Shown: positions 11,795-13,405 of the stretch, piece by piece
Position numbering within the stretch: position 1 is the first letter of the stretch
How the letters are laid out: each line of letters begins with the position of its first letter
NCBI RefSeq assembly: GCF_058153355.1
Contig: NZ_CM177019.1
Reading direction: 5' to 3' (one strand)
DNA: 64,000 bases
Notes under the pieces: model-generated
Told to the model about the DNA's origin: nothing
Seen by the model: the letters and a program-made list of their open reading frames with translations, nothing else
The model's database searches: none
Position numbers and translations under genes: made by a program

Positions 11795-12526
11795 ATGAAG
11801 ATGTTGCGCGATCCGCTGTTCTGGCTCATTGCTCTGTTTGTGGCGCTGATTTTCTGGCTGCCTTACAGCCAGCCGCTGTTTTCTGCCTTGTTCCCACAAC
11901 TGCCACGACCCGTTTATCAGCAAGAAAGTTTTGCCGTCCTGGCGCTGGCCCATTTCTGGCTGGTGGGAATTTCGAGTTTGTTTGCTGTGATCATTGGCGT
12001 TGGTGCCGGAATTGCCGTCACTCGACCGTGGGGTGCGGAATTTCGCCCACTGGTAGAAACTATCGCTGCCGTTGGGCAGACTTTTCCGCCCGTCGCGGTG
12101 CTGGCGATTGCTGTTCCGGTGATGGGGTTTGGTCTGCAACCGGCGATTATCGCCTTGATCCTGTACGGTGTGCTGCCCGTCCTGCAGGCGACACTTGCCG
12201 GGCTGGGATCGATTGATGCCAGCGTGACAGAAGTTGCTAAAGGTATGGGAATGAGCCGTGGTCAGCAACTGCGTAAGGTCGAGCTACCGCTGGCGGCTCC
12301 GGTGATTCTGGCGGGCGTGCGAACTTCGGTGATTATCAACATTGGTACGGCGACGATCGCCTCAACGGTAGGGGCCAGCACGCTGGGTACGCCCATCATC
12401 ATCGGGCTTAGCGGATTTAATACCGCGTATGTGATCCAGGGGGCGTTACTGGTGGCACTGGCGGCGATCATCGCAGACCGCCTGTTTGAAAGGCTGGTGC
12501 AGGCGCTTAGCCAGCACGCAAAATAA
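11795..12526 (+). CDS. yehW: ABC transporter permease
   Basis: Multi-TM permease ORF immediately after yehX. Confidence 0.85.
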
Positions 12527-12614
12527 AGGTATAACCTGCGAGCATGACGCCACCAATTCCGCCTAACGCCATAAACAGGAACAGGGCGATGACCCCAATT
12601 TTAGCTATGCGCAT
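12507..12614 (-). CDS. yohO: 35-aa small membrane protein convergent with, and overlapping, the 3' end of yehW
   Basis: Minus-strand [38 protein letters not shown] with one predicted TM helix; absent from the supplied ORF track because it is below the size cutoff. The gene name is from memory. Confidence 0.5.
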
Positions 12615-12673
12615 AATGCACTCCTTATGTTAACGAAAGGATTGTACAGTAAAGCGCATTTGTTAACGAATCA

Positions 12674-13405
12674 TTAAATGCCGAGTGGGAAAATATCATG
12701 GCCTTGTTCCTGCCAACTGGTAAGTTGCTGCTGTTGGGCAGAGGTTCGATTTTCACCGCACCACACCAGCAATGTACGGCCTTCGAACAGTTCAGGGCGT
12801 AGTTGATTGAGCGAGTGGGCGAGGACATCAATGCGCCAGCCCTGTTGACTGGCAATCCAGCCCTCTAGCCACAGACGGGTGGTATCCTGAATATTCCAGC
12901 CAACCACCAGCGCATCTTTACCCTGTTTTTTACGTGCCGAAGCCAGACAAATGGCGATGTAGTTGATCAGTACGCCGTCGAGGATCGCCAGCAGCGCCTG
13001 GAGAGTCGGTTGTTGGCACTGAAGTCGTCGGCGCAGAGGAATAAACAGGTGCGTGGTGAGTGTCTGGGCGGGGTAATCCTGACCGCGCTCTTTGATCCAC
13101 GTTCGCAGGCTATGCAGATTGCCGCTTTGCAGGTAAGTCAGTAATGTTTCTTGCTGATCGCGCCAGCCGTTCTGCACATCAACATTTTCATTACTGAGCA
13201 GCATTTTAACTTTGCTGACCTGCACGCCGTTGTCGATCCAGCGTTTGATCTCGCGGATCCGGTCAATATCGGCATCATTGAACAGCCGATGACCGCCGTC
13301 TGTCCGTTGCGGTTTCAGCAATCCGTAACGCCTCTGCCACGCGCGTAACGTGACAGGGTTAATATCACAAAGCAACGCCACTTCACCAATTGTGTAAAGC
13401 GCCAT
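12674..13405 (-). CDS. mlrA: MerR-family transcriptional regulator (activator of csgD)
   Basis: N-terminal MerR-type HTH (YTIGEVALLCDINPVTLRAWQRRYGLL). Confidence 0.85.
   Translation of the reverse strand: MALYTIGEVALLCDINPVTLRAWQRRYGLLKPQRTDGGHRLFNDADIDRIREIKRWIDNGVQVSKVKMLLSNENVDVQNGWRDQQETLLTYLQSGNLHSLRTWIKERGQDYPAQTLTTHLFIPLRRRLQCQQPTLQALLAILDGVLINYIAICLASARKKQGKDALVVGWNIQDTTRLWLEGWIASQQGWRIDVLAHSLNQLRPELFEGRTLLVWCGENRTSAQQQQLTSWQEQGHDIFPLGI

Follow-up and report, generated by a model that had tools for sequence, protein, structure and literature searches.

The window, a 64,000-nucleotide stretch of RefSeq contig NZ_CM177019.1 (assembly GCF_058153355.1), carries on its minus strand a 35-codon open reading frame (ORF) with an ATG start and a TAA stop, situated between the convergent gene yehW and the same-strand gene mlrA (Table 1). 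An earlier note, made from the letters alone, had proposed here a gene for a 35-aa small protein with a single transmembrane (TM) segment, and the sequence agrees exactly with the coordinates and translation given for it; what the earlier note missed is that this gene is already known, having been named, annotated and experimentally detected as yohO. The RefSeq call at the matching position between yehW and mlrA is 'protein YohO' (WP_001216963.1), the NCBIfam equivalog NF010225 ('protein YohO') matches with 80.1 bits against a cutoff of 57, with residues 1-35 on positions 1-35 of the 35-position profile, and an exact-sequence look-up returned 'UPF0387 membrane protein YohO' (RepID=YOHO_ECOLI) as well as 'protein YohO [Escherichia coli]'. 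By its identical sequence, length and position, the window protein is a member of the YohO/UPF0387 family. In the E. coli genome used for comparison, yohO lies on the strand opposite to yehW, overlaps it by 20 nt and is located 59 nt downstream of mlrA, which is the layout of the window, and positions 12300-12900 were matched by 5,423 of 5,426 complete E. coli genomes in a megablast search, the RefSeq label under the match being 'yohO: protein YohO'. Pfam PF27791 (UPF0387_membrane) is a precomputed label on YohO homologues; a search with the peptide against a local Pfam copy without this family gave no significant match, and a sub-threshold score for B12D was dismissed as noise. No yohO paralogue was found within the window.

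Only 106 out of 5,425 records for E. coli match 12300-12900 with an identity of at least 99%, the others lying at 95-99%, which suggests a minority lineage of Escherichia as the origin of the window. The palindrome in which the ORF had been said to start, ATGCGCAT, is indeed present at 12607..12614, but it is incidental and not conserved across genera: in the upstream alignment, yohO of other genera starts with ATGAGC, ATGAAG, ATGAAA or ATGAAC, and because the start sequence differs in this way, we attach no meaning to it.

Table 1 Features at the yohO locus, in positions of the window.
Feature	Position	Strand	Source or remark
yehW, final gene of the glycine betaine ABC transporter operon yehZYXW	11795..12526	+	ORF list, RefSeq
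yohO coding sequence; small single-pass membrane protein YohO / UPF0387	12507..12614	-	ORF list, RefSeq, NF010225, YOHO_ECOLI
20 nt shared tail-to-tail by the yohO and yehW coding sequences	12507..12526		ORF coordinates
Shine-Dalgarno sequence AAGGAG, 6 nt 5' of the yohO ATG	12621..12626	-	Sequence, alignment
Conserved leader motif GTTAACA	12628..12634	-	Upstream alignment; (G)TTAACA in most genera, also Klebsiella
-10-like hexamer TACAAT, 26 nt 5' of the ATG; putative yohO promoter	12641..12646	-	TAtAAT column block
Conserved block TTAATGATTCGTTAACA; candidate -35 or operator region	12661..12677	-	Conserved across genera
mlrA, same-strand neighbour upstream of yohO	12674..13405	-	ORF list, annotation

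Considering length alone, an ORF of this size does not exceed what chance provides, since the 3.5-kb stretch around yohO is overlapped by 52 ORFs of 20 aa or more; this density and the lack of a significant local Pfam match would suit a chance antisense frame at the end of yehW, and no gene at all. What places yohO above chance is the combination of AAGGAG 6 nt 5' of its ATG, conservation in frame and the substitution pattern. We anchored the comparison on the neighbour mlrA rather than on yohO, so that loss or decay of yohO would be visible, and obtained 80 loci, taken from contigs at one genome per species and representing about 20 genera. An intact ORF of 35-37 aa with an ATG start and a Shine-Dalgarno sequence about 6 nt 5' of it was present in 79 of them. 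In the sole disrupted copy, that of Citrobacter amalonaticus AUH_CA_2023_1 (L009:3790-3900), a T5 run carries an additional T compared with the intact locus L016 of the same species, which shifts the frame; the likely cause is either a sequencing error in the homopolymer or very recent pseudogene formation.

The substitution analysis comprised 80 distinct nucleotide sequences and 45 distinct proteins. Outside the overlap with yehW, entropy at codon positions 1/2/3 of yohO was 0.59/0.24/1.25, and the pooled Nei-Gojobori dN/dS was 0.18 for codons 2-29 and 0.05 for codons 15-28, as compared with 1.1, 3.2, 1.1, 0.32 and 2.5 for the other five frames of the same nucleotides. In-frame conservation, codon-position entropy and a dN/dS that is low relative to the other frames thus demonstrate that yohO is under protein-level purifying selection, with ORF, Shine-Dalgarno sequence and frame conserved in about 20 enterobacterial genera. 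Conservation and ribosome profiling were among the checks that the earlier note had suggested for its candidate; the former turned out positive, and evidence of the latter kind is present in the literature, where Ribo-seq coverage of yohO has been shown and where the protein was detected by top-down mass spectrometry in 2025 (<50% sequence coverage, PMC12529367). Together with the three-base periodicity and the match to a curated NCBIfam equivalog, the conservation analysis and the published detection refute the reading as a spurious ORF, to which we assign a practically negligible probability, and we hold with high confidence that the 35-codon ORF is yohO, a genuine gene that is translated into a small membrane protein.

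Membrane localisation and tagging of YohO are attributed to Hemm 2008 in a secondary citation of that work. The protein itself is uncharged from residue 6 to residue 32 (27 residues, between K5 and R33), its best 19-aa Kyte-Doolittle mean is 2.41, and AlphaFold2, run on a 20-sequence alignment, predicts one helix spanning residues 3-34 with a mean pLDDT of 88.4. Residues M15, A16, G19, I20, G22, V23, M24, L25, G27, Y28 and I31 are invariant and together make up the C-terminal half of the predicted helix; in the N-terminal half of the hydrophobic stretch, hydrophobic residues vary freely among themselves. The invariant segment shows the small-xxx-small spacing (G/S18-G22-A26 and G19-V23-G27) that is typical of tight helix-helix packing. 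A net charge of +1 to +2 at the N-terminus and of 0 to +1 at the C-terminus weakly favours an N-in/C-out topology. YohO would accordingly be expected to act as a protein inside the membrane, where its invariant glycine-rich helix segment may pack against a second transmembrane helix that belongs to a larger partner or to YohO itself.

Within the 75 nt 5' of yohO, conserved blocks follow each other in the order TTAATG.TTCATTAACA, about 14 nt, TAtAAT, about 8 nt, (G)TTAACA, AAGGAG, about 6 nt and ATG. The first of these is the consensus of the block at 12661..12677, which in the window spans the mlrA stop codon; the -10-like hexamer is TATAAT in most other genera in an alignment of 70 upstream regions; and the Shine-Dalgarno sequence of the aligned loci is AAGGAG or CAGGAG, rarely ATGGAG, AAGGAA or GAGGAG. 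The same blocks are found in Klebsiella, Mangrovibacter and Shimwellia, each with another gene upstream, and because they are kept where the upstream gene differs, they belong to yohO and not to mlrA. Going by this alignment, they probably represent a promoter belonging to yohO and a leader roughly 20 nt long, with GTTAACA placed at or just after the putative transcription start. A sigma-70 consensus scan of the yohO strand called no promoter, TACAAT going uncalled because it has no good -35 hexamer.

A 10-nt direct repeat, TTCGTTAACA, flanks TACAAT at 12670-12661 and 12637-12628 (minus strand), the upstream block of most genera is an inverted repeat of the type TTAAT-N5-ATTAA, and GTTAAC too is palindromic; the repeats around TACAAT could serve as operator for some regulator. 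The E. coli TGTACAAT bears what we take to be a resemblance to a half-site of the MlrA box, and other genera have CGTATAAT in its place. Regarding published regulation data, a genomic-SELEX peak of the RpoE holoenzyme inside yehW, next to yohO, is intragenic and weak, its 4.0-fold value being at the cutoff (PMC5493296), and in Shigella flexneri the yohO mRNA is about 8-fold lower under anaerobic conditions (log2FC -2.96), with no FNR effect listed (PMC4229854). A 29-kb region including yohO is deleted in the viable reduced-genome strain DGF-298 (PMC10652928), yohO therefore being dispensable.

The 20-nt convergent overlap with yehW, with both stop codons counted, is likewise as first described. 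Its length is 20, 23 or 26 nt in all 80 loci and in the window, which keeps the relative frame of the two genes constant, and it also exists where mlrA is absent (Mangrovibacter 20 nt, Shimwellia 20 nt, Klebsiella pneumoniae 26 nt). The length classes co-vary, YohO proteins of 35/36/37 aa going with overlaps of 20/23/26 nt and YehW having 243 or 245 aa in the two main overlap classes; this fits single in-frame indels in the shared segment, by which both proteins would grow longer together.

Upstream of the overlap, entropy at codon positions 1/2/3 of yehW was 0.45/0.22/1.11 (0.37/0.16/1.13 in the 26-nt class), and inside it 0.27/0.88/0.50 in the 20-nt class and 0.02/0.81/0.08 in the 26-nt class. 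In the same segment yohO shows its normal periodicity (0.43/0.41/1.10), the second codon positions of yehW pairing with the third positions of yohO. The C-terminus of YohO is conserved as F/V-I-L/V-R/H-A/G-G, and the C-termini of YehW are diverse (…SQHAK, …TRHVK, …SRHRREQ, …TRYEG). Selection in the shared segment is set by the YohO frame, and the YehW tail therefore drifts.

Because the coding sequences overlap, full-length yohO and yehZYXW mRNAs are complementary at their 3' ends. We found no convincing intrinsic terminator between yohO and yehW, in agreement with the overlap in published RNA-seq data, where the pair is one of 165 convergent excludons present in at least 50% of 58 MG1655 samples (ExcludonFinder, PMC12288877). 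A terminator-like hairpin inside yohO (12597-12582) was rejected, its frequency being no higher than in shuffled sequence. Like convergent excludons in general, yohO and yehW are neighbours with necessarily overlapping mRNAs, and by transcript overlap they belong to this class; unlike in the usual case, the coding sequences themselves overlap, beyond the untranslated regions. The coupling of yohO and yehW expression through the overlap, as raised in the earlier note, is plausible and the pair already catalogued.

Taken further, the RNA might outweigh the peptide: through colliding polymerases or through cutting of the duplex by RNase III, yohO and yehZYXW would come to exclude each other, with the peptide as a passenger. 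The complementarity in every locus examined, the terminator search and the entry of the pair in the MG1655 'excludome' argue for such an arrangement; however, a pure antisense role needs neither a dN/dS of 0.05-0.18 nor a conserved Shine-Dalgarno sequence, PMC12288877 offers a catalogue entry without reciprocal-expression or RNase III data for this pair, and the overlap may last only because its removal damages a coding sequence. As the main role of the locus we regard mutual exclusion at the RNA level as unlikely. It is compatible with the explanation that accounts best for the data, in which yohO is a translated gene in its own short transcription unit and encodes a 35-aa single-pass inner-membrane protein of the UPF0387 family. 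The complementary 3' ends would then add an antisense layer of mutual interference, which we rank as secondary and non-exclusive, since an antisense role leaves the selection on the amino acids unexplained.

With respect to its range, phmmer, run exhaustively against 1.84 billion representative proteins, gave only 17 clusters at E <=0.001. All of them are closely related proteins or versions with a frameshift or a fusion, and among the intact members those of Mangrovibacter and Shimwellia blattae diverge most. In these two genera and in Klebsiella pneumoniae there is no mlrA at the position: upstream of yohO lies metG or an HTH_5 regulator in Mangrovibacter and a TonB-dependent receptor in Shimwellia, and in Klebsiella pneumoniae yohO is divergent from btsS. 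Beyond the yehW-type permease, all three carry the rest of the yehZYXW operon and then bglX. This shows that yohO travels with yehW and not with mlrA: irrespective of the gene on its upstream side, it converges on the 3' end of yehW and overlaps it. No neighbour other than yehW is constant, and mlrA, btsS, metG and the TonB-dependent receptor are present in some lineages and absent from others.

The listed YehW homologues were otherwise all at least 77% identical, and outgroups were taken from a plasmid collection, namely Yersinia pseudotuberculosis (65% YehW identity) and Azospirillum oryzae (61%), both with the four-gene transporter operon. Neither of these yehZYXW-type operons has a yohO-like ORF, the best profile score being 6 bits as against 77.6 bits for the Klebsiella control, from which it follows that the transporter predates yohO and has a wider distribution. 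That yohO is specific to Enterobacteriaceae, and fixed there tail-to-tail to yehW, is well supported.

Variation on the yehW side was also encountered. In Escherichia sp. MOD1-EC7003, an internal yehZ'-'yehW deletion (L002:3883-4080) leaves the last ~46 yehW codons, fused to a 5' part that by its look is presumably the YehZ signal-peptide region; yohO (L002:3792-3899) is intact there and 100% identical to the window's protein, despite the loss of most of yehZYXW. In Leclercia adecarboxylata NCTC13032 (L037:3898-4619), the alignment of yehW falls into two pieces that overlap each other (residues 1-97 and 78-241), pointing to a frameshift or a small duplication, and yohO is intact there as well.

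Small single-pass proteins that modulate transporters or membrane complexes include KdpF (KdpABC), AcrZ (AcrB), MgtS (MgtA) and CydX (CydAB). YohO may be likened to them in its way of working, as a protein in the range of about 30-50 aa with one hydrophobic helix and a strongly conserved helix segment; this is an analogy and not membership, there being no sequence relationship. Like kdpF and cydX, yohO adjoins the operon of its putative partner; unlike these, which are co-transcribed within the partner operon, it converges on that operon from a putative promoter of its own.

Very short hydrophobic membrane peptides whose genes are overlapped by an opposite-strand transcript are also known as type I toxins (Ibs/Sib, Ldr/Rdl, Hok/Sok, TisB/IstR), and YohO is like them in both respects. 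In contrast to them, yohO is single copy at a fixed core-genome position across the family, the only opposing transcript to be expected is an operon mRNA (yehZYXW) in place of a dedicated small RNA, and, unlike tightly repressed toxins, it has a strong Shine-Dalgarno sequence and a protein detectable in normal cultures. A search of both strands of 12200-12900 at E up to 1 matched no Rfam family. We rated the toxin reading unlikely.

Our literature search, which covered work other than the primary small-protein papers, returned neither a function assignment nor a functional experiment for YohO. Since no gene except yehW is constantly found with yohO, the most economical candidate for a partner is the YehW/YehY permease of the betaine transporter YehZYXW, a possible but doubtful assignment that has synteny as its one line of evidence. 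Such synteny may come from the overlap alone, because any breakpoint between the two genes destroys one of them. The co-occurrence expected of a KdpF-like accessory subunit is not what the outgroups display, and as Yersinia and Azospirillum possess the transporter but lack yohO, YohO is no core transporter subunit. It could instead be an Enterobacteriaceae-specific add-on to YehZYXW, the helix binding YehW/YehY and tuning or inhibiting transport, with the overlap making the two mRNAs antagonistic; we consider this combination improbable in its full form. As a related point, we put forward that yohO originated in the 3' flank of yehW once the Yersiniaceae had branched off, and that it has taken over selection in the shared 20-26 nt.

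Alternatively, YohO may be functional with a target other than the Yeh transporter, such as another complex, a sensor kinase (e.g., the nearby BtsS) or a homo-oligomer, and its adjacency to yehW would then reflect lock-in by the overlap. Small proteins with targets encoded elsewhere are familiar from AcrZ on AcrB and MgrB on PhoQ, and a target of this kind would agree with the Yersinia and Azospirillum transporters that do without yohO, with the intact yohO of the Escherichia genome that has lost most of the operon, with the conserved putative promoter region of yohO, which is not co-transcribed with the operon, and with the oxygen-responsive mRNA in Shigella. On the other hand, yehW is the constant neighbour in all lineages, and no data found here indicate another partner; we take a target outside the Yeh system as a serious possibility that nonetheless falls short of an even chance.

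As a discovery, the locus carries little weight, since yohO is named, annotated and detected and its overlap with yehW is catalogued, and the comparative details given here are modest refinements that leave the classification unchanged. Possibly new among them are the linkage of yohO to yehW and not to mlrA, the overlap of 20/23/26 nt, the selection that follows the yohO frame within it, the promoter-like block conserved upstream of yohO, and the Yersinia and Azospirillum transporters without yohO. A first-stage reader was nevertheless able to recognise a genuine small-protein gene in bare sequence. For the family, the comparative results point to the relation between YohO and YehZYXW, and to the separation of peptide from transcript effects, as the questions to be asked; if YohO were indeed an add-on to the transporter and the two mRNAs antagonistic, a single locus would combine a protein-level with an antisense-level switch.
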